NCBI GenBank assembly: GCA_036570185.1
Contig: DATCPH010000015.1
Span: 178 to 64,177, forward strand
Direction of reading: 5' to 3'
Origin: Candidatus Limnocylindrales bacterium
Lineage (GTDB): Bacteria > Chloroflexota > Limnocylindria > Limnocylindrales > CSP1-4
Length of the DNA: 64,000 bases
The notes under the pieces are model-generated. The model did not search any database. It was not told the origin of the DNA and saw only the letters and a list, made by a program, of their open reading frames with translations. How positions within the stretch are numbered: position 1 is the stretch's first letter; each line of letters opens with the position of its first letter. This document shows positions 5,750 to 59,690 of this stretch, piece by piece. The translations under genes were made by a program, and so were the position numbers.

Positions 5750-6691
5750 TCATTCGGCCGTCCGAACGCGACCCTGTCGATAGCTGGGTGTCGTCGGCTG
5801 CTCGCGCCGCCAGGCCATATGGAGCAGGACCGTGGCCCACATGCGGTAGGGCCGCCATCGATCGGCGATCTCCAGCCACGTCTGGTCGTCGGGCAGCGCA
5901 TCCAGGTGGGCGAAGTGGCGCACGGCCTCGCGGCTGATCCCGTCGCCCAGCGGCAGCCCATCGGCAACGCCGCAGCCCCGGAGGAGGACACCGCTCGCCG
6001 TCCACTCGCCGATCCCGGGCAGCGTCCTGAGCTCAACCAACGCCTGCTCCTCGGGCAAATTCCGAAGCCGTTCGGTATCCAGCCGGCCATCCAGCGCTGC
6101 CCGGGCCAGGCCGTGGAGTCGTTCGACTTTGACGGCGGCCAGGCCCGGCACGTCCTTGAGCTCGAGGATCCGCTGCGGGCGGGGGAATGGCCGGATCGCG
6201 CGCCATTCGCCGTCGGCTGCCTCGACTTCCACGACATCGCCGACCTCCGCTGACAGCTTCTCCTTGATCCTGCGTGCCTGGACCATGGAAATCCGCTGGC
6301 CGATCACGAATGAGGTGGCGGCTTTCCAGGCAGAGTAGAAGCAGACCGGCCGGAGGAGGCCGTACCGCGCCTGTAACGCGTCGATCATCGAGTCGCGCCG
6401 ACCGACATCGGGCCAACCCGAGCCGTCGTGATCGACCGACAAGGAGCGGGCGGCCTGCCGGCGGATCGTGTCGAGGTCGCCGTCACCGAACACCGTTCCG
6501 TGGAGCGAACCCTCGGCCGTCTGGCCAAGCTCGACGACCGCGCTGGTCGCCCAGCCCTCGACGGGGAACGTCATCTGGATCGCGTCGGCGCCGACCGGAT
6601 GCGCTCCGATCCCGGCGCTGAAGCCGCCGGCAAAGTCGCGGGCTGTTGCAAGGTCGAATGGGCCCCGCGGCTCAATCGTGATCGAGCGCAT
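5750..6691 (-). CDS. DNA-3-methyladenine glycosylase II family protein (HhH-GPD, AlkA-like)
   Basis: The ATG at 6691 gives MRSITIEPRGPFDL.... The HhH-GPD core reads LRTLPGIGEWTASGVLLRGCGVADGLPLGDGISRE, with Gly-rich hairpin and catalytic Asp context. The upstream 58 codons of the listed ORF are Arg/Gly junk. Confidence 0.8.
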   Translation of the reverse strand: MRSITIEPRGPFDLATARDFAGGFSAGIGAHPVGADAIQMTFPVEGWATSAVVELGQTAEGSLHGTVFGDGDLDTIRRQAARSLSVDHDGSGWPDVGRRDSMIDALQARYGLLRPVCFYSAWKAATSFVIGQRISMVQARRIKEKLSAEVGDVVEVEAADGEWRAIRPFPRPQRILELKDVPGLAAVKVERLHGLARAALDGRLDTERLRNLPEEQALVELRTLPGIGEWTASGVLLRGCGVADGLPLGDGISREAVRHFAHLDALPDDQTWLEIADRWRPYRMWATVLLHMAWRREQPTTPSYRQGRVRTAE

Positions 6692-6759
6692 CCGCCGAGC
6701 ATAGGGGCCTCCGGCCCGCAGTGGCCAGTCGCGACCGAGCCCCGCGTACAATCCGTCCG

Positions 6760-7944
6760 ATGTCCGTCTACCTCGACCACGCGGCGACAACGCCGCTTCG
6801 CAGCGAGGCGCTCGAGGCCATGCTGCCATTCCTGACCGAGCAGTTCGGCAACCCGAGCTCGCCACATTCCTTCGGGCGGCGCGCCCGTGCGGCCCTTGAC
6901 GAGGCCCACGAGCGGATCGCGGCCGGGCTGGGGGCCTCTCCGCGCGAGATCATCCTGACGTCCGGCGGCACCGAGGCGCTGAACCTGGCCCTGAAGGGCG
7001 CCGCGTGGGCCGGCAAGGGACGCGGTCATCGCATCGTCACGTCGGCCGTGGAGCATCACGCGGTCGGGCACGCGCTCCGCCATCTCGAGAGCTTCGGCTT
7101 CGAGGTGGTCGAGCTCCCGGTCGACCGCTACGGCCGCGTCGACCCTGACGCGATCGATGCCGCGATCACGGATCGAACGATCCTTGTCGCCGTTCAGCTC
7201 GCGAACAACGAGGTCGGCACGATCCAGCCGACCGTCGCGCTCGCCGAGCGGGTCCACGCCCACAAAGGGGTCCTGTTCGCCGTCGACGCGATCGCCGCCG
7301 CGCCGTACGTGCCGATCGATGTCGAGGCCCTCGGCGCCGACCTCCTGGCGATCGCTGCCCACAAGTTCGAGGGGCCCAAGGGCGCCGGCGCGCTCTACCT
7401 GCGGCGCGGAACGCACATCGTCAGCCAGCAGCATGGCGGGACCCAGGAACGGTACCGGCGCGCCGGCACGGAGGACGTGGCCGGTGCGGTCGGGATGGCG
7501 GTCGCGTTCGAACTCCTGGGCCAGGAGCGCGAATCGACCGCGCGCCGGCTCAGGAAGCAGCGGGAGCGCCTGCAACGAGCCGTCCTCAGCGTCGACGGCG
7601 CGGAGCTGACGGGACACCCGAAGGATCGCCTGCCCGGCTTGCTCAGTATCGTTGCCCGCGAGACCGACGCCGCGTCGATCGTGATGGCCCTCGACCTCGA
7701 AGGCGTGGCCGCGTCCGTCGGTTCGGCGTGCACGACCGGCTCGACTGAGCCGTCGCGCGTCCTTACGGCCATGGGCTACCCGGAGGACGAGGCACGCGGG
7801 GCATTGCGGTTGTCGCTCGGTCGCGCCACGACCGACGCTGAGGTCGAGGCCGCCGCCGAGATCGTGCCACGGGTGCTCGCCTCGCAGCGGGCCGCCACGA
7901 TCGCCCTGTCCGCGGATCCGCTCGGCGAGCGCGTCACGGCATGA
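6760..7944 (+). CDS. iscS: Cysteine desulfurase (class V aminotransferase, IscS/NifS-like)
   Basis: MSVYLDHAATTPL..., GGTEALNLALKG, SAVEHHAV, AIAAHKFEGPKG (PLP lysine), SVGSACTTGSTEPS (active-site Cys loop). Lies directly upstream of mnmA, a conserved pairing. Confidence 0.9.
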   Translation: MSVYLDHAATTPLRSEALEAMLPFLTEQFGNPSSPHSFGRRARAALDEAHERIAAGLGASPREIILTSGGTEALNLALKGAAWAGKGRGHRIVTSAVEHHAVGHALRHLESFGFEVVELPVDRYGRVDPDAIDAAITDRTILVAVQLANNEVGTIQPTVALAERVHAHKGVLFAVDAIAAAPYVPIDVEALGADLLAIAAHKFEGPKGAGALYLRRGTHIVSQQHGGTQERYRRAGTEDVAGAVGMAVAFELLGQERESTARRLRKQRERLQRAVLSVDGAELTGHPKDRLPGLLSIVARETDAASIVMALDLEGVAASVGSACTTGSTEPSRVLTAMGYPEDEARGALRLSLGRATTDAEVEAAAEIVPRVLASQRAATIALSADPLGERVTA

Positions 7945-50966: not shown

Positions 50967-52142
50967 GTGACTGCATCGAAAGGCTTGGCTTCGCGCACTG
51001 CGTACGCGCGGGCCGGCGTCAACGTCGCCGCCGGCGATACCGCGGTCGACTTGATGCGCGCTGCGGTCGAATCGACCCGACGTCCCGAGGTCATCGGTGG
51101 GCTGGGTGGCTTCGCCGGCACGATCGCGATCCCTGCCGGCTACCGGGAGCCGCTCCTGGTGGCCTCGACGGACGGCGTGGGGACGAAAACGGCCATTGCG
51201 ATGACCGCCGGCCGGTGGGACACGATCGGGATCGACCTCGTGGCGATGTGTGCCGACGATGTCGTCTGTGCCGGCGCCGAACCGCTGGCGTTTCTGGACT
51301 ACCTCGCCGTCGGCGAGCTCGACCCGGAGGCCGTGGCCGAGATCGTCGGCGGGGTCGCGGCCGGCTGCCGCGAGGCGGGCTGCGCCCTGGTCGGCGGGGA
51401 GACGGCCGAGCACCCCGGGATCATGGCGCCCGAAACGTTCGACCTTGCCGGAACCTGCGTCGGCATCGTCGAGCGTGACCGCCTCCTCGATGGTTCGCAG
51501 GCACGCGACGGCGACGCGATCGTCGGTCTTCTGGCGTCGGGGTTGCACGCCAATGGCTTCTCCCTGATCCGCGCGCTGGTCACGAACTGGGACATCGACC
51601 TGACCGTTCCCTACCAGGAGCAACTCAGCCGGTCGCTCGGGGAGGTCGCCGCCAGCGCGGCGATGGTCGCGGAACCGGAACATGCCCTGGCGACGCTCGG
51701 AGACGTCTTGTTGACTCCGACGCGCATCTACGCCCGGGCCGTCCTTGGCCTGCGCGACGCCCTGACAGGGGAGGGGAGCGAGCTGCGGGGTGTCGCCCAC
51801 ATCACCGGGGGCGGTCTTCCCGGCAACGTTCCTCGCGCGCTCCCCTCGACCCTCGGGGCGCGCGTGGACCCCTCGCGGTGGCGTATGCCATCGGTCATGG
51901 CGCTTTTCGGCGCGCTCGGGGGCATCGAGCCGAGCGAGCTACGGGCGACGTTCAACGGGGGCATCGGGATGGCCGTGTTCGTCCCACCAGAGGTCGTCGA
52001 CCTGACTCGCGGGGCGCTGGCGGCAGCCGGCGTCGAGAGCGTGGTGATCGGCGAGGTGGTCCCGGTTGACGCGCTCGGCGGCCTCCGCTACGTCGAGGCG
52101 ATGCTGGCCGACGGCGGCGGCGGCCCGGGGAGCGCGGCGTGA
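50967..52142 (+). CDS. purM: Phosphoribosylformylglycinamidine cyclo-ligase (AIR synthase)
   Basis: GTG at 50967 (tentative). YARAGVNVAAGD, STDGVGTK, GIDLVAMCADD, FLDYLAVG, LVGGETAEHPG, HSNGFS-like LHANGFSL. Confidence 0.92.
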   Translation: MTASKGLASRTAYARAGVNVAAGDTAVDLMRAAVESTRRPEVIGGLGGFAGTIAIPAGYREPLLVASTDGVGTKTAIAMTAGRWDTIGIDLVAMCADDVVCAGAEPLAFLDYLAVGELDPEAVAEIVGGVAAGCREAGCALVGGETAEHPGIMAPETFDLAGTCVGIVERDRLLDGSQARDGDAIVGLLASGLHANGFSLIRALVTNWDIDLTVPYQEQLSRSLGEVAASAAMVAEPEHALATLGDVLLTPTRIYARAVLGLRDALTGEGSELRGVAHITGGGLPGNVPRALPSTLGARVDPSRWRMPSVMALFGALGGIEPSELRATFNGGIGMAVFVPPEVVDLTRGALAAAGVESVVIGEVVPVDALGGLRYVEAMLADGGGGPGSAA

Positions 52143-54427
52143 TGGACGCGGCGCACCCCGGCGATGGCGCCTCAACCACCCAGCGCGGGCGAATCGCAGT
52201 CGGCGTTTCGGGCGCCGGCTCGAACCTGCGGGCGCTGGCGGCGGCGGCCGATCGAGGCGAGCTGGGCGGCGCGATCGCCCTCGTCTTCGCCGATCGGGAC
52301 TGCCCGGCCCTGGCCTGGGCGCGCGACCAGGCGCTCGTCACGGCGCTGGTGCCGGGCGGAGATGACGCTGCGCTCGCCGAGGCGTTAAGGGCCGCGCGCG
52401 CCGACGTGGTCGTCCTCGCCGGGTACATGCGGGTCGTCGAGCCGGCGACGCTGGCCGCGTTCCGCGGCCGGATCCTGAACACCCATCCCTCGCTCCTGCC
52501 GGCCTTCCCGGGCGCCCGCGCGGTGCGCGACGCGCTCGACCACGGCGTCAAGGTGACGGGCTGCACGGTCCACCTCGTCGACGAGACCCTTGACGGCGGG
52601 CCGATCGTGGCCCAGGAGGCCGTGCCGGTCCTGCCAAGTGACGACGAGGAGACTCTGCACGCCCGGATCCTCGCCGCCGAGCATCAGGTGTTGCCACGGG
52701 TCGTGGCTCTCGTTCTTGCTGGCGCCATGTCGCGGCTCGACGGCCGACACGTCAGTCTCGACTTCGCCGCGGCCGACGATGCGGTCACGGTGCCCCGGCG
52801 CGCGCTCATGTCGGTCTCGAACAAAGCCGGGCTCGTGCCCTTCGCGACGGATCTCGTCCGGCTCGGGTTCGAGCTCGTCTCAACCGGAGGAACGGCACGC
52901 GCGCTGCGTGACGGCGGATTGCCGGTGACGGACGTGGCGGCCGTGACCGGATTTCCGGAAATGCTCGACGGCCGAGTCAAGACACTCCACCCGCGGATCC
53001 ACGGCGGGCTGCTGGCGGACCGCCGCCTGCCCACGCACCGGCAGCAGCTCATGGCCGCAGCAATCGCGCCGTTCGAGCTCGTGGTCTGCAACCTCTATCC
53101 CTTCGCCGCCGCTGCCGATCGACCGGGGATCACGTTCGACGAGCTGGTCGAGGAGATCGACATCGGCGGGCCGTCGATGGTCCGGGCGGCCGCGAAGAAC
53201 CACGCCAACGTCGCGATCGTGACCTCCCCTGCCCGATACGAAGCGGTCCTCGAGGCGCTGGACCGAGAGGGCCATGTCCCAGCCGGCCTGCGTGGTGCCC
53301 TCGCGATCGAGGCCTTCCGGCACACGGCCGCGTACGACGCCCGGATCGCGGCCGAACTGCCCGGTCGGATGGCCGGCGCCGGGGTTCAGCTGCCGGACGA
53401 GCCCGGGCTTCCCGGCGCGACCGATCCGTACCCGTCGCTCTTGACGATCCCGCTCGAGAAGGTCGAGAGCCTGCGGTACGGCGAAAACCCCCACCAGCCG
53501 GCGGCGCGCTATCGACGTCTCGGTCCCGGCTCCGTCGACGGGCCGTTCATCTCCGGAGAGCCGCCGCTCCAGGGCAAGGCGCTCTCCTACAACAACGTCC
53601 TCGACGCCTCGGCCGCCGCGGCGATCGGCCGAGCCCTGCGGGGCCCGGCATGCGTCGTCGTGAAGCACACCAACCCCTGCGGCGCGGCGGAGCGCCCGAC
53701 GCTGCTCGAGGCGTGGCGTGCAGCCCTCGCGTGCGATCCGGTTTCGGCGTTCGGCGGCGTCGTGGCCCTGACCCAGGAGGTGGATGAGCCGGTCGCGCGC
53801 GCCCTCGTGGAGCTCTTCCTCGAGGTCGTGGTTGCTCCCGGCTACGACCCAGCGGCGCGACGCGTCCTCGCGACCAAGCCGAACCTGCGGCTGCTGGTCG
53901 ATCGTGGCCTGGGCGGCGACGCGGGACGCGATGATTCCCCGGCCCCGCCCGATCCCACGGGCGCAATCCGGACCGCCGCCGGCGCGGTCCTGGTGACGAG
54001 CGCCGACATCCTCGCGGACGATCCCACGAGATGGACGCTCGCGAGCCGCCGGTCTCCCACGGACCGCGAGCAGCGGGATCTCGATCTGGCGTGGCGCCTC
54101 GTCCGCGGCGTCACCTCCAACGCGATCGTGCTGGTTCGCGACGGTGCGCTGATCGGCCTCGGGTCGGGGCAGACGTCCCGGGTCGACGCCGCCCGCCAGG
54201 CCGTCGAGAAGGCTCGCGCCATCTCGGGCGCCAAGGCCCTCGAAGGCGCGGCCTGCGCCTCGGATGCTTTCTATCCGTTTCCCGACGGCGTGGAGGTCTG
54301 CTTGGAAGCCGGCGTCAGCGCGTTCGTCCAACCCGGCGGATCCGTCCGCGATGCAGAGGTCATCGGTGGAGTCGACGCGGCCGATGCGGCCATGATGCTC
54401 ACGGGAGTGCGCCACTTCCGCCATTGA
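52139..54427 (+). CDS. purNH: Fusion of GAR transformylase (PurN, N-terminal ~215 aa) and AICAR transformylase/IMP cyclohydrolase (PurH, C-terminal ~530 aa)
   Basis: One uninterrupted 762-codon frame. PurN motifs: [41 protein letters not shown]. Junction: ...[24 protein letters not shown].... PurH motifs: [75 protein letters not shown]. Confidence 0.9.
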
Positions 54428-54485
54428 TGAGTTTCGGCGACACTGGCCGGGCGAGCCGCAGGTCAATGGAGCGAGGGAGAAGGCC

Positions 54486-54950
54486 ATGGGAGAGCGACGC
54501 ACCGAGCAAGAGCTGGTCGCGTACTACGCGACGAGTTGCATGGCGGCCGATCTCGACGTGCTCGCGACGCTCCGGCATCGGGACTGGGCGGTCATCTGGC
54601 CCCAATCGGGCGAGCTCGTTCACGGCAACGAGGCCTTCGCCGAGATCATCAAGAACTACCCCGGTGGTGCGCCGCATGCCGAGGTCACCAAGGTAGTGGG
54701 TGCCGAAGACCACTGGGTCGTTACGCCGGGAAACACCGTGCTCAAGGTGGCCGGCAGCGGTGATTTCTGGTGGTCGGAGTGGCGAGTAACGTACAGGGAC
54801 GGCTCCGTCTACCTCTGCGTCGACCTGATCGAACTCCGCGACGACCTGGTCTACCGCGAGACCGTGTACTGGGCGGCACCGTTCGAGGCGCCCGATTGGC
54901 GGGCGCCGTGGGTCGAGCGGACGACCGCCCAGGACGTCGGCGTTCCCTGA
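54486..54950 (+). CDS. Small cytosolic protein, NTF2/SnoaL-like fold (tentative)
   Basis: 154 aa with high GC3. The alpha+beta pattern has a Trp/Tyr-rich C-terminal half ([36 protein letters not shown]), reminiscent of SnoaL-like cone folds. The stop overlaps the next start (TGATG). The fold assignment is unverified. Confidence 0.55.
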
Positions 54951-56527
54951 TGGCGCTCGCGGCCCCACCCCGCGACGTCCTGATCGACGAGGCCCCCCTC
55001 GAGACTGCCGACATCGTCGCGATCGCCCGCGGCGCGAAGGTCGCGTTGGGGCCTACGGCTCGCGGGCGAATCGCGGCCTCTCGCGGCGTCGTCGACCGCC
55101 TCGTGGCCGGCGACACGCTGATCTACGGCCTTAACACCGGCCTCGGTCACAAGCGGAACGAGCGACTCCCGCTCGACATGGTCGAAACGACCCAGGCCGT
55201 CACCGTGCGGCTCCACGCCGGTGGCCTTGGCCCGCCACTTCCAGGCGAGATCGTCCGAGCGGCGATGGCGGTCCGAATCGCAGGGATCGCCCGCGGCGGA
55301 TCCGGCGCGTCGCCGGCCATCGCCGAGACGTACGTCGAGATGCTCAACGCCGGCATCACGCCGGTTGTGCCGCTCGTCGGCTCCGTCGGGGCGTCGGACT
55401 TGATGCACATGGCGGCAATTGCGCTGGTGGCCATGGGCGAGGGGCAGGCCGAGCTGGAAGGCCGCGTCCTACCCGGCGCCGAGGCGCTTGCGGCGGCCGG
55501 GATCGAACCCACCCGGCTTGCTCCAAAGGACGGCCTCACCGTCATCAGCGCCAACGGCGTCTCGATCGGACATGCCGCACTGGTCGTCGATCGCGCCCAG
55601 CGCGTCGCCGATGCCGCGGATCTGGTCGCAGCCGTCTCGCTCGAGGCGATTCGCGGAAACCTCTCCATCGTCGACCCAGTTGTGGCGGCCGCCAAGCCCG
55701 TGGCTGCGCAGGCGCTCGTCGCCGATCGCATCCGGCGCTTCCTTGCGGGAAGTCGGTTGTGCACAGGCACGGAATCCGTCCAGGACCCCCTGTCGTTCCG
55801 GGTGACACCGCAGGTTCACGGCGCCTTCCGTGAGGTCCTTCGCTTTGCGGCCGGTGCGGTGGACAGCGAGCTCGCTGCCATGGACGACAACCCACTCGTC
55901 GCCATCGACGAGGATCGGATGATCAGCAATGGCAACTTCCACCCGATGCTGCTGGCGCTCTCGATCGATGCGCTCCGGCCTGCGCTGACGCACGTCGGCC
56001 AGCTGTCGGATCGTCGCGCAGGGCACATCTGGGACGGCATCGTTGCCGACCCCGAGGTGTTCACGCCCGATGGATTCGAGAAGATCGCGAGTCTCGGGCC
56101 GCCGATGGTCCGCTACGCCGGGGCCGCACAGGCTGCGGAGCTTCGGACGCTCGCGGGGCCGGCGAGCCTCGACGTTGGACCGCTCGACCTCGGCGTCGAG
56201 GACCACGCGACGAACGCGACGCTCGCAGTGCGGCTGACCGACCAGGCGCTCGACCTCGTGGAGGACATCCTTGCGGTCGAGCTCCTGACGGCCGCAGCCA
56301 CCGTTGTCACTGGTGCGGAATCCCGATCCCTGATGGGACCCCGAACCCGAAGCGCCCTCGATCTCGTCGGCGCGACGCTGGCCGGGTTCGAGCGTGGAGC
56401 TCCGAGCGAGAAGATCCACGCCGCGATCCGTGACCTGATCGACGGACCCCTGCTCGAGACTGCCGAGAACGTGGAGATCGTGGGGGAGGGCGAGGCCGCC
56501 GACGAGGCCGAGACCGCCCGTTCGTGA
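54950..56527 (+). CDS. HAL/PAL-family (aromatic amino acid lyase fold) protein with non-canonical Ala-Ser-Asp at the MIO position
   Basis: ATG at 54950. Family motifs: IYGLNTGLG, GSVGAS-DLMHMA (canonical GSxGASGDLAPLAH), KDGLTVISANG, VQDPLSFRVTPQVHG, DDNPLV, ISNGNFHP. Residues 148-150 are A-S-D (nt 55391-55399). Confidence 0.8.
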   Translation: MALAAPPRDVLIDEAPLETADIVAIARGAKVALGPTARGRIAASRGVVDRLVAGDTLIYGLNTGLGHKRNERLPLDMVETTQAVTVRLHAGGLGPPLPGEIVRAAMAVRIAGIARGGSGASPAIAETYVEMLNAGITPVVPLVGSVGASDLMHMAAIALVAMGEGQAELEGRVLPGAEALAAAGIEPTRLAPKDGLTVISANGVSIGHAALVVDRAQRVADAADLVAAVSLEAIRGNLSIVDPVVAAAKPVAAQALVADRIRRFLAGSRLCTGTESVQDPLSFRVTPQVHGAFREVLRFAAGAVDSELAAMDDNPLVAIDEDRMISNGNFHPMLLALSIDALRPALTHVGQLSDRRAGHIWDGIVADPEVFTPDGFEKIASLGPPMVRYAGAAQAAELRTLAGPASLDVGPLDLGVEDHATNATLAVRLTDQALDLVEDILAVELLTAAATVVTGAESRSLMGPRTRSALDLVGATLAGFERGAPSEKIHAAIRDLIDGPLLETAENVEIVGEGEAADEAETARS

Positions 56528-57948
56528 CCGCTCCTTTGCCCGTCGCCGGCTCGTCGCCGGCGCCGGATCGGTCAACCTTGTTGATCGCCGTCGCAGCGCT
56601 CGCGGCGTTCACCGCGAACGTCGACCTCAGCATCGTCAACCTGGCGCTGCCCCTCGTCGGCCACGCCTTCAGGACGACACAGTCGGAGCTCGCCTGGACG
56701 GTCAACGCGTACGTGGTTCCGTATGCCGTCTCGATCCTCGCCGTCGGGCGGCTCGGCGATGGCTTCGGGCATCGGCGCGTCCTGGTCGGCGGCGCGCTGC
56801 TGTTCGCGCTGGGCTCGATCATCTCGGCAGCCGCGCCGGCCTACGCTGTCCTCCTCGCGGGGCGCGTCCTGCAGGGCCTGGGCGGGAGCGCCCTTCTCAC
56901 GATCGGCCTCGCCATCGTGTCGGCGAACTTCGTCGGCCCCGAGCGGGGGCGCGCCCTCGGCCTGTACTTTGCCGCCGGCGCCGGCGCCGCCGTCGTCGGC
57001 CCGATCGTCGGCGGGTTTCTCGCCACGGGCGCCGGTTGGTCGGCGATCTTCTGGGTTCAGATCCCGCTGGCGCTGGTGGTCACGGCCGTCGCCCTCGCCG
57101 TCCTTCCGGCGCGTGCCGGCGGCGTTCGGCGCTCGCTCGACGTCCCCGGTCTCGGGCTCGGCAGCCTGGTCCTGCTCGGGATCAACGTGGCTCTTCTTCA
57201 GGCCAACGCCTGGGGCTGGACCTCGCCCGGCGTCCTGGTCGCATGGGCGACGGCCGCTGTTGCCGTGGTTGCGTTCGTGATCCGAGAGCGGTCCACTCCT
57301 GAGCCGGCGATTCGGTTGGGCGTGTTTCGGAGCCGGATCTACATCGCGTCGGTCCTGGTCGGGGGCGCGGTCTGGTTCGGGATCATCTCCGGATCGGTCC
57401 AGCTGGCGATCTACCTTCAGACAGTCCGCGGACTGAGCCCATTGGGTGCGGCGATCGTCCTGACGCCGTGGCCGCTACTGGCGGCCTTCGTGTTCCCGCG
57501 CGCCAGCCGGATCGTCAACCGGATCGGCGCGGAGCGGACGATGGTCGGCAGCATCGCGCTGACCGCGCTCGCCGCAGTGATGACCATCACCTTCGATCGG
57601 TCGACACCGCTGCCGATCGTCGCTTTCGTGGCCGCGCTCGGGGGCGTGCCCCTCGCCCTCGGCGTCACCGCAAGCACGGTCTGCGCCCTTGCGGAGTTCT
57701 CACCCTCAGAGGCCGGGATCGCATCCGGGGTATTCAACGGCCTCCGCCAGGTCGGGTCGTCTCTCGGCGTGGCCATCCCCGCGGCGGCGTTCGATCTCGC
57801 GCTGGCCGGTTCGATCGGCGGAGCCGACCCGATGGCCGGCTCGACCTGGGCGTTTGCGAGTCGGGCGGTCGTCTTCGGGGTCACGCTCGTTCTGGTGATG
57901 GCGATCCTGCCGCGCCAGCACCGGGTCATCTCGCTCGAGCCTGCCTGA
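56524..57948 (+). CDS. MFS transporter (14-TM DHA2/EmrB-like pattern)
   Basis: The GTG at 56524 overlaps the lyase stop (GTGA). DLSIVNLALP, motif-A-like GRLGDGFGHRRV, and about 14 hydrophobic helices. Confidence 0.85.
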   Translation: MTAPLPVAGSSPAPDRSTLLIAVAALAAFTANVDLSIVNLALPLVGHAFRTTQSELAWTVNAYVVPYAVSILAVGRLGDGFGHRRVLVGGALLFALGSIISAAAPAYAVLLAGRVLQGLGGSALLTIGLAIVSANFVGPERGRALGLYFAAGAGAAVVGPIVGGFLATGAGWSAIFWVQIPLALVVTAVALAVLPARAGGVRRSLDVPGLGLGSLVLLGINVALLQANAWGWTSPGVLVAWATAAVAVVAFVIRERSTPEPAIRLGVFRSRIYIASVLVGGAVWFGIISGSVQLAIYLQTVRGLSPLGAAIVLTPWPLLAAFVFPRASRIVNRIGAERTMVGSIALTALAAVMTITFDRSTPLPIVAFVAALGGVPLALGVTASTVCALAEFSPSEAGIASGVFNGLRQVGSSLGVAIPAAAFDLALAGSIGGADPMAGSTWAFASRAVVFGVTLVLVMAILPRQHRVISLEPA

Positions 57949-57961
57949 GGAACCTCGAGCC

Positions 57962-57992
57962 GCAGCGGCCCCGAGCGGCTCCGCGCCGCTGC
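57962..57992 (+). terminator. Inverted repeat after the MFS gene (possible terminator, no U-tract)
   Basis: gcagcggc-N15-gccgctgc: an 8-bp perfect stem between the MFS stop (57948) and the metG ATG (58008). Confidence 0.25.
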
Positions 57993-58007
57993 TACCATCG
58001 CCCTTCC

Positions 58008-59690
58008 ATGGCCGCCCGCCGCTTCTACATCACGACCGCGATCGCTTATGCGAACAGCCGGCCGGGGCTGCACACGCTGTATGAGGTGATCGGGGCCGAC
58101 GCGATTGCCCGCTGGCACCGGATGCGCGGCCACGACACGTTCTTCCTGACCGGCACCGACGAGTACTCGGTCAACATCGCGATGACGGCCGAGGAACAGG
58201 GCAAGACGCCCAAGGCGTTCGTCGACGAGATGGTCGACCTCTTCAAGCGCGCCGAGGACGCCCTCCTGATCTCACCCGACCGATTCATCCGGACGACCGA
58301 CCCCGACCACACCGAGGCCGTCCACGAGATGATCCGGCGGGCATACGCCAACGGCGACCTGTACGTCGGGACCTACGAGGGCTGGTACTGCCCGAACGAA
58401 GGATTCAAGGCCCCGAGCGACCTCATCGAGGACGCCCGAGGCTTCCACTGCCCCAACCACCCCGACGCCATGCTGCAGTGGCTGACCGAGCGCAACTGGT
58501 TCTTCCGTCTCTCCGCGTACCAGGAAAAGCTCGAGCTCTACTACGCGGACCATCCGGACTGGGTCCAGCCGGACTACCGCCGCAACGAGATGCTTGGGTT
58601 CATCCGCCAGGGTCTGGAGGACTTCTCGGTCAGCCGCGAAATGGCGCCGTGGGGCATGCCCTTCCCGATCCTGGAGAACGGCGAGTCGGCTCAGCGCGCG
58701 GACGGCACGTGGGACCCGGCGGCCGGCACCGTCTATGTCTGGTTCGACGCCCTCACGAACTACATCACGGGCGTCGGATTCCCGGGCGACATGCCGCGCT
58801 TCGAGCAGTACTGGCCCGTCGACGTCCACGTGATCGGCAAGGACATCAACCGTCTCCACACGGTGATGTGGCCAGCGATGCTGATGAGCGCCGGCCTGGA
58901 GTTGCCGCGCCTCGTCTGGGTTCACGGCTGGCTCCTCGTTCAGGGTGAGCGGATGAGCAAGAGCCGGGGGAACTTTCTCGATCCGGTCAACGTGGCCAAG
59001 GTCTTCGGGGCCGACGGCGCGCGCTACGTGACGCTGCGCGAGGTTGCGTTCGACCGCGACACGGACGTCAGCTGGGATTCCTTCGTGCGGCGCTTCAACG
59101 CCGACCTCGCCAACGACTTCGGCAACCTCGTGAACCGCACCGTGACCATGGCCGCGCGCTACCTCGATGGCGACCGGCCGTCACCGCGGCCGGACAGCCC
59201 GTTGCGCTCGCGCTGGGAGGCGGGGCTGGCGGGCTATCGCGAGCGCTTCGATGCGTATCTCCTCCACGACGCACTGGCGGCGCTCTGGGCGTTCGTCGGG
59301 GACGCCAACCGGCTGGTCGACGCCGAGCAGCCGTGGGTGATTGCTAAGGCTGCCCGGGCCGGCGAAGCCGATGCCGAAGCGGCGGAGGCCGCGGAGGTTC
59401 GGCTGCGCGGCGTTCTCGGCGATCTCATCGAGGCCTGCCGCCTCGTTGGCCTTGCGGCGGCACCGTTCCTGCCATCGACCGCCCCGCGCGTGCTTGGGCA
59501 GCTCGGCTACGAGTATCCCTATTCGGAGGACGGCAACGGGGGCCCGCCGCTGGATGGTGAACTGGCATGGGGCGCGCACGCCGGCGCGGCAGGACGGGTC
59601 GGTGCGCCGGAGCCCCTGTTCCCGCGGCTGGAGGGCGAACCTGTCGATTCGGGGGATGGGTTGATCGTTAATCCAGATGGGCGACGATGA
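58008..59690 (+). CDS. metG: Methionyl-tRNA synthetase (short form) with degenerate HIGH motif
   Basis: ATG at 58008. FYITTAIAYANSRPGLHTLYEVIGADAIARWHRMRGHDTFFLTGTDE, VWFDAL, WPAML, and GERMSKSRGNF (KMSKS). The listed 57468 start overlaps the MFS gene. Confidence 0.9.
   Translation: MAARRFYITTAIAYANSRPGLHTLYEVIGADAIARWHRMRGHDTFFLTGTDEYSVNIAMTAEEQGKTPKAFVDEMVDLFKRAEDALLISPDRFIRTTDPDHTEAVHEMIRRAYANGDLYVGTYEGWYCPNEGFKAPSDLIEDARGFHCPNHPDAMLQWLTERNWFFRLSAYQEKLELYYADHPDWVQPDYRRNEMLGFIRQGLEDFSVSREMAPWGMPFPILENGESAQRADGTWDPAAGTVYVWFDALTNYITGVGFPGDMPRFEQYWPVDVHVIGKDINRLHTVMWPAMLMSAGLELPRLVWVHGWLLVQGERMSKSRGNFLDPVNVAKVFGADGARYVTLREVAFDRDTDVSWDSFVRRFNADLANDFGNLVNRTVTMAARYLDGDRPSPRPDSPLRSRWEAGLAGYRERFDAYLLHDALAALWAFVGDANRLVDAEQPWVIAKAARAGEADAEAAEAAEVRLRGVLGDLIEACRLVGLAAAPFLPSTAPRVLGQLGYEYPYSEDGNGGPPLDGELAWGAHAGAAGRVGAPEPLFPRLEGEPVDSGDGLIVNPDGRR

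Follow-up and report, generated by a model that had tools for sequence, protein, structure and literature searches.

Relatives of histidine ammonia-lyase (HAL) that dispense with the methylidene-imidazolone (MIO) cofactor are known from few enzymes: ergothionase and, from preprints, two lyases of Shewanella. The absence of MIO is characteristic of the trimethylammonia-lyases, and in the ergothionase of Treponema denticola an essential residue, Lys384, binds the thiolate of ergothioneine (bioRxiv 10.64898/2026.04.22.720169; 10.1101/2025.08.13.670108). The two Shewanella enzymes, Swoo_3913 of S. woodyi and SO_3299 of S. oneidensis, are periplasmic and are paired with urocanate-type reductases in anaerobic respiration (bioRxiv 10.1101/2025.08.13.670108; 10.64898/2026.04.22.720169). 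The present work deals with a further MIO-free protein of this fold, encoded in a stretch of 64,000 nucleotides (the window) from contig DATCPH010000015.1 of a soil Chloroflexota genome, that of a Candidatus Limnocylindrales bacterium (assembly GCA_036570185.1), where its gene stands between those of an NTF2-like protein and of a transporter of the major facilitator superfamily (MFS).

Judged by its sequence, the window lyase is neither an ergothionase nor a HutH; within the MIO-free branch it belongs to a large clade, called 'Tyr-type' here after the residue found in place of the ergothionase lysine. It is, on balance, probable that this member of the ergothionase branch acts on a sulfur-free histidine betaine, with hercynine as the first candidate, and that it yields urocanate and trimethylamine.

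Absence of the MIO triad in the lyase and its clade

The protein matches the family PF00221 (Lyase_aromatic) with 424.8 bits (cut-off 27.3) over match positions 1-463 of 466, and misses the curated HutH models, reaching 337 bits with TIGR01225 (cut-off 539) and 334 bits with NF006871 (cut-off 524). With phmmer, it matches the HutH of Pseudomonas putida (1b8f/1gkm) and the genome's own HutH at E values of 1e-55 to 1e-59 and about 30% identity. The original prediction, made from the letters of the window, had quoted a series of motifs common to HAL and phenylalanine ammonia-lyase (IYGLNTGLG, QDPLSFR..PQVHG, DNPL and NGNFH) together with a MIO-forming loop one residue short, and both the motifs and the shortened loop are indeed found in the protein. 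When GSVGASGDLAPLAH of the P. putida enzyme is aligned with GSVGAS-DLMHMA of the window lyase, exactly one gap opens, at the glycine of the MIO triad, and the in-frame codons ggc tcc gtc ggg gcg tcg gac read G144, S145, V146, G147, A148, S149 and D150, i.e. Ala148-Ser149-Asp150 in place of Ala-Ser-Gly (ASG).

The same deletion occurs in all of the approximately 120 nearest database homologues (55-92% identity), whose loops follow the consensus GS[VI]GA[S/A/G]DL. Residue statistics were taken from 126 representatives of 50%-identity clusters, including 78 Gly-less and 42 ASG rows. Since the position of the MIO serine varies among the 78 Gly-less representatives (S in 36, A in 27, G in 14), a conserved methylidene-imidazolone is ruled out in the clade. 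The loss of the glycine, the variation at the serine position and the conservation among homologues show that the lyase, which has the HAL fold, is truly MIO-less, in line with what had been predicted. An assembly artefact, by which a deletion of 3 nucleotides would hide the ASG triad of an ordinary hutH, had been named beforehand as a way in which this could be mistaken, and its probability is now practically nil: a stretch of 601 nucleotides shows 0 differences and 0 gaps in three separately assembled soil-metagenome runs (all of a single study, and perhaps the source sample itself), every close homologue has the deletion, and the deletion correlates with residue changes elsewhere in the protein.

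The AlphaFold2 model of the lyase (pLDDT 91.3) has a HAL-like all-helical fold. Its top Foldseek match is the ergothionase 6s7j (TM score 0.83-0.88) and, since HAL structures come close behind (TM scores to HAL and ergothionase 0.83-0.86), the fold alone does not discriminate between ergothionase and HAL. The trees, built without the loop columns, were made with FastTree (126 rows) and with IQ-TREE (LG+G4, 83 rows, support by the SH-like approximate likelihood-ratio test, SH-aLRT). A branch with an SH-aLRT support of 100 has all 59 Gly-less rows of the IQ-TREE tree on one side, and the FastTree tree is concordant; as the root is unknown, the tree indicates one change of state, the direction of which it leaves open. 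The window lyase falls in a 30-row clade (support 100) in which His89 is kept and the Lys384 position holds a Tyr in all but three rows; within this clade, a sub-clade of 15 rows (support 96) bears the motif L-R-Y. Rows with the ergothionase-type lysine form groups of their own, among them P0161, which matches 6s7j with an E value of 3e-81. The clade extends over Chloroflexota, Dormibacterota and Actinomycetota with intact open reading frames (ORFs). The kinship to ergothionase suggested in the original prediction is thereby upheld, by the shared loop and pocket changes, by the split with support 100 and by the top structural match, and a betaine-type substrate, which had been put forward as plausible, is what this kinship would best suggest.

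Two further groups on the Gly-less side were observed. In a sub-branch comprising 18 of the 78 rows (P0168, P0181, P0200-P0202, P0213 and others), an Arg replaces the imidazole-binding residue equivalent to HAL His83 and the ergothionase-type Lys is kept, which suggests that non-imidazole or anionic substrates may be used there. Moreover, P0164, P0172 and P0180 are Gly-less lyases of the Lys384 type with 682-696 residues, extended at the N-terminus by about 170 of them.

Active site and proposed reaction

The loss of the MIO glycine goes together with other changes in the active site. The position of HAL Tyr280 is taken by L, I or V in 77 of the 78 Gly-less rows (Leu281 in the window lyase) and by Y in 41 of the 42 ASG rows; that of Asn195 by S in 60 of the 78 (Ser200 in the window lyase) and by N in all 42; and that of Thr197 by N in 69 of the 78 and by T in 40 of the 42. 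In the window lyase, N195-G-T of HAL becomes S200-A-N202 and QEDHVSMG becomes VEDHATN. Invariant in 52 clade members, down to 53% identity, are Y59, H89, Q278, R284, N314, F330, E417, D150 and L281. Y59 is equivalent to HAL Tyr53 (the base), H89 to His83 and E417 to Glu414. The list includes the retained imidazole binders of HAL (His89, Glu417), and the carboxylate binders of HAL (Gln278, Arg284 and Asn314) are retained as well.

The position of the ergothionase Lys384 is occupied by Tyr389 (LRY vs IQKT). The imidazole pocket is HAL-like, including a Tyr after the Gln385-equivalent, as in many HALs, and the Met382-equivalent. The pocket thus resembles ergothionase on the leaving-group side and HAL on the imidazole side. 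Furthermore, Arg388 is specific to the clade, and the Tyr loop bears the basic lid residues His67, Arg69 and Arg72.

A sulfur-free histidine betaine is favoured as substrate because the residues that bind the imidazole and the carboxylate persist and the thiolate-binding Lys is a Tyr, as in HAL; with that Lys absent, ergothioneine is an unlikely substrate. In the proposed reaction, Tyr59 would abstract the beta-proton of the substrate, and C-alpha would lose, unaided by MIO, a group that already leaves readily, trimethylammonium being the likeliest. The urocanate formed would enter the complete Hut pathway of the genome, trimethylamine being the other product, and the DHA2-like MFS protein would most likely transport either the cation used as substrate or the amine released.

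As regards the Hut pathway, a canonical HutH with the ASG loop GSVGASGDLAPLAH is encoded on another contig (C264) of the same genome, which also holds HutU, HutI, glutamate formiminotransferase (FTCD_N), the cyclodeaminase (FTCD_C), FolD and FTHFS. This 93%-complete genome has one urocanase-family gene only (PF01175), located away from the lyase. In the survey of the class (201 sampled genomes; the tallies include the unpublished G087, G091, G106, G123 and G151, which carry no claim by themselves), urocanase co-occurrence is uninformative, given that urocanase is present in five of the five lyase-bearing genomes but also in 187 of the 201. On C264 (genome G000, L033:2676-10282), hutH forms a row with genes for FTCD_C, FolD, formate-tetrahydrofolate ligase, an NTF2-like paralogue and an MFS protein with 12 transmembrane segments (TMS). 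The paralogue, 41% identical to the NTF2-like protein of the window, and the MFS gene, unrelated to that of the window, lie just upstream of hutH. An NTF2-like gene and an MFS gene adjoin both HAL-family genes of the genome, which hints that the NTF2 family is linked somehow to histidine-type catabolism.

Gene neighbourhood and its conservation

The features of the locus are collected in Table 1. The original prediction had described three genes coupled by overlapping stop and start codons between two housekeeping units: the overlaps are there (TGATG at 54948-54952, GTGA at 56524-56527), the genes share one strand, and the Pfam matches give a purN-purH fusion upstream and metG downstream. The GC content of the three-gene region (0.69-0.71) is the same as that of the flanks. 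A scan of 54200-58300 returned no sigma-70-like promoter between the genes and no convincing terminator, the one terminator-like hairpin, inside the MFS gene, being at chance level.

Table 1. Features of the lyase locus and its flanks in the window (positions of the window)
Feature	Position	Strand	Remarks
PurN-PurH fusion, upstream flank, end of the purine operon	52139..54427	+	Pfam Formyl_trans_N + MGS + AICARFT_IMPCHas
NTF2/SnoaL_2-like gene (P0001)	54486..54950	+	154 aa; Pfam SnoaL_2; stop codon overlaps lyase start
MIO-less HAL-fold lyase gene (P0004)	54950..56527	+	525 aa; PF00221; AlphaFold2 model; placed in tree
Lyase loop codons G144-S-V-G-A148-S149-D150	55379..55399	+	One residue short, without the MIO Gly
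DHA2/EmrB-like MFS gene of the 14-TMS type (P0003)	56524..57948	+	474 aa; GTG start overlaps lyase stop
metG, downstream flank	58026..59690, start approximate (Pfam match onset in ORF 57468-59690)	+	tRNA-synt_1g, 294 bits, from ORF residue 187

Gene neighbourhoods were read in about 21 non-redundant loci from the Chloroflexota and Dormibacterota part of the clade. In most Chloroflexota relatives metG is the next gene after the lyase or the MFS gene, and purN-purH usually comes before the lyase; the purH-metG site is conserved with a variable content. An orthologous MFS gene (59-76% identity) follows the lyase directly in nine of the loci, among them L036, L038-L042, L056 and the 92%-identical locus. 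An NTF2-like ortholog directly precedes the lyase in ten, usually with an overlap of 4 nucleotides. The full trio is present in five loci from two phyla, including two Dormibacterota metagenome-assembled genomes (MAGs), and the lyase stands without either partner in at least five. The three-gene unit of the original prediction holds in so far as the trio recurs; it is not obligate, each gene being found without the others as well.

Within the class survey, the lyase is present in only 5 of the 201 genomes, which agrees with the accessory character that had been attributed to the module. NTF2-like orthologs occur in 16, of which 14 are without the lyase and 2 with it, and MFS proteins above 50% identity in 2. 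Since MFS orthologs adjoin the lyase in nine loci, and a close one is found apart from it only once (G121, an 80%-complete genome), the MFS link is more specific than the NTF2 link. The lyase is the core of the arrangement, and the NTF2-like gene, common in the lineage and not tied to the lyase, is a frequent but dispensable neighbour. The Actinomycetota members of the clade (46-55% identity) have neither the MFS nor the NTF2 partner; their loci contain AAA_16, AMP-binding, AHSA1, F420-type reductase or ABC/TOBE genes, nothing of which is diagnostic, and no recurrent catabolic genes were seen around the distant clade members P0128 and P0131, which lie on short contigs.

The two partner proteins had been given tentative roles in the original prediction, an importer and an accessory isomerase or hydratase; the former is a guess, and nothing in favour of the latter was found. 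The MFS protein (MFS_1, PF07690, 154.6 bits) appears to be of the DHA2/EmrB efflux type: the best of its 55 NCBIfam matches is TIGR00711 (efflux_EmrB, 184 bits, under the cut-off of 230), and nearly all of them are efflux pumps. The NTF2-like protein matches SnoaL_2 marginally (28 bits, cut-off 27), and its AlphaFold2 model (pLDDT 78) has a cone-shaped alpha+beta NTF2 fold, the best matches of which in the Protein Data Bank, 3en8 and 4lmi, are both function-unassigned; KSI/LEH-type folds are matched too, a sequence search against solved structures returned only proteins of unknown function, and no catalytic assignment follows from the fold matches. A predicted complex between the lyase and the NTF2-like protein scored 0.00 in a run made without controls, a value that speaks neither for nor against their interaction.

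Some observations concern the flanks. The longest metG ORF begins 480 nucleotides inside the MFS gene (57468); because the match to the MetRS domain begins only at ORF residue 187, the true start of metG is probably near 58000. The fusion of PurN and PurH in a single ORF (720-780 aa) is kept in all the relatives read (L003, L005, L019, L031 and L032, besides the window), and is a trait of the lineage, not an assembly join. The purH-metG junction is a variable slot, occupied by the lyase or the NTF2 gene singly or by the two together, in some cases joined by an MFS or DUF1269 gene; the NTF2-like gene is alone there in L031 (5001-5462), where it overlaps metG by 8 nucleotides, and in L032 (5001-5447). 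Finally, a Chloroflexia MAG carries, 4 kb downstream and on the opposite strand, a second PF00221 gene (L043:11117-12505, minus strand; 530 bits) whose product is 35% identical to the window lyase.

Alternative readings and comparison with described lyases

An ergothionase proper, converting ergothioneine to thiourocanate and trimethylamine, is an unlikely identity for the window lyase. Although 6s7j is its best structural match and the two are alike in loop architecture and in the changes of the leaving-group pocket, Lys384, reported as essential, is Tyr389 here and a Tyr in nearly every member of the 30-row clade, the sequences that do bear the Lys lie in separate clades, and the single urocanase-family gene leaves no spare candidate for a thiourocanate hydratase. 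It is quite improbable, too, that we are dealing with a decayed or non-catalytic HutH paralogue, either as a pseudoenzyme or with a weak histidine ammonia-lyase activity independent of MIO: the invariance of the catalytic Tyr and of all the substrate binders over 52 sequences, the spread of the clade over three phyla with intact ORFs and the active enzyme included in the sister lineages speak against decay, even if a canonical HutH elsewhere in the genome and the patchy occurrence of the gene in the class would fit it. A different chemistry or role deserves some thought, and we hold it to be possible but doubtful. The protein could act, as a lyase or an addition enzyme, on a histidine derivative that is not a betaine, or it could belong to a small module for biosynthesis or detoxification, with the NTF2-like protein tailoring the product and the DHA2 pump carrying it out of the cell. 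MFS proteins of the DHA2/EmrB type are, as a rule, exporters, and SnoaL-like proteins are often tailoring enzymes; moreover, neither an importer nor EgtD was found, and the clade-specific Arg388 and the basic residues of the lid loop are left without explanation. However, no further biosynthetic genes recur beside the lyase, which often stands alone between housekeeping genes, and all the derived changes of its pocket are common to trimethylamine-releasing enzymes.

Part of this evidence also weighs against a histidine betaine, and hercynine in particular, as the substrate. EgtD was not found in the genome, so hercynine would have to be scavenged from outside, and no BCCT or OpuA/ProU-type betaine importer was found nearby, the MFS protein resembling an efflux-type family. 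Hercynine leaves Arg388 and H67/R69/R72 unexplained, and the substrate could be more anionic. The neighbourhoods beyond Chloroflexota and Dormibacterota offer no catabolic hint, and the characterised hercynine lyase, Swoo_3913, seems to be of a different lineage, with an Asn at the Lys384 position and another Tyr-His spacing. A bolder and rather speculative idea, to which we would give only a small chance, is that the Tyr-type clade constitutes a distinct MIO-free family with a new substrate, maybe a histidine-derived betaine other than hercynine and ergothioneine. In soil Chloroflexota and Dormibacterota the lyase would then be one of three components, together with a DHA2 transporter reserved for some quaternary or tertiary amine and an assisting NTF2-like protein; more broadly, the Gly-less branch might equal the MIO enzymes in age and diversity.

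If hercynine or a relative of it is the substrate, fungal and actinobacterial histidine betaines would be turned into urocanate and trimethylamine in these organisms, with a bearing on soil nitrogen and methylamine cycling, and a widespread mis-annotation would be corrected, as the databases name the window protein 'histidine ammonia-lyase' or 'aromatic amino acid ammonia-lyase'. The lyase brings no new enzyme principle. The clade for which it stands is large, well separated from the others, uncharacterised so far and spread over soil phyla that are abundant (Chloroflexota/Limnocylindria, Dormibacterota and Actinomycetota), and simple sequence rules tell the types apart, namely the G-x-x-D loop, a Leu at the Tyr280 position, Ser-x-Asn where HAL has Asn-Gly-Thr, and the residue at the Lys384 position.

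Compared with HutH (that of P. putida and the C264 copy of the genome), the window lyase has the same fold and a HAL-like imidazole pocket, but it is without the Ala-Ser-Gly triad, has lost Tyr280 and Asn195, and is found on the opposite side of the split with support 100. The GYL-loop lyases, exemplified by a Klebsiella plasmid (NZ_CP092410.1, L021), are also MIO-less and have Leu at the Tyr280 position, whereas their loop, GSVGYL, is three residues shorter; because they are nested with ASG enzymes in the tree, they stand for an independent loss of MIO. In this Klebsiella pneumoniae record (5977-7509), the GSVGYLIATAH lyase, labelled 'aromatic amino acid ammonia-lyase', is encoded between a four-gene ABC transporter and hutD/hutC, also near hutU and a gene for formimidoylglutamate deiminase. 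The arrangement resembles a plasmid-borne histidine-betaine utilisation cluster, and by this analogy the GYL-loop lyases are probably histidine-betaine lyases. Among the 979 plasmid records matched by the lyase query, 197 are from Klebsiella, ordinary hutH genes included.

The hercynine lyases Swoo_3913 and SO_3299, which were compared by their published residues and stand outside the tree, differ from the window lyase in having an Asn or Gln, instead of Tyr, at the Lys384 position and a spacing of 40 residues (Tyr77-His117) as against 30. The N-terminus of the window lyase was seen, by eye, to be without a hydrophobic leader, and there is no reductase near the locus. Like the window lyase, both Shewanella enzymes are MIO-less, keep the imidazole and carboxylate binders, carry a neutral residue instead of the ergothionase Lys, and form a product that enters urocanate metabolism, as would be the case for the product proposed here.

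Finally, the T. denticola ergothionase (6s7j/6s7q; the 6s7j sequence was taken from the alignment to a database relative) is only about 26-27% identical to the window lyase, which lies in a separate, fully supported clade, and it has Lys384 (IQKT) where the latter has Tyr389; genes of a thiourocanate pathway were not found near the window lyase. Nevertheless, the likeness between the two runs through the active site: the loop of ergothionase, SSIGEGDITTLSH (IGEGD), is equally one residue short and of the form G-x-x-D, QDPLSFR stands where HAL has QDPYSLR (Tyr280 to Leu), Asn195-Gly-Thr of HAL is replaced by S-C-N in 6s7j and by S-A-N in the window lyase, IEDHASN in the one corresponds to VEDHATN in the other, and the catalytic Tyr, the equivalents of His83 and Glu414 and the carboxylate binders are kept in both.

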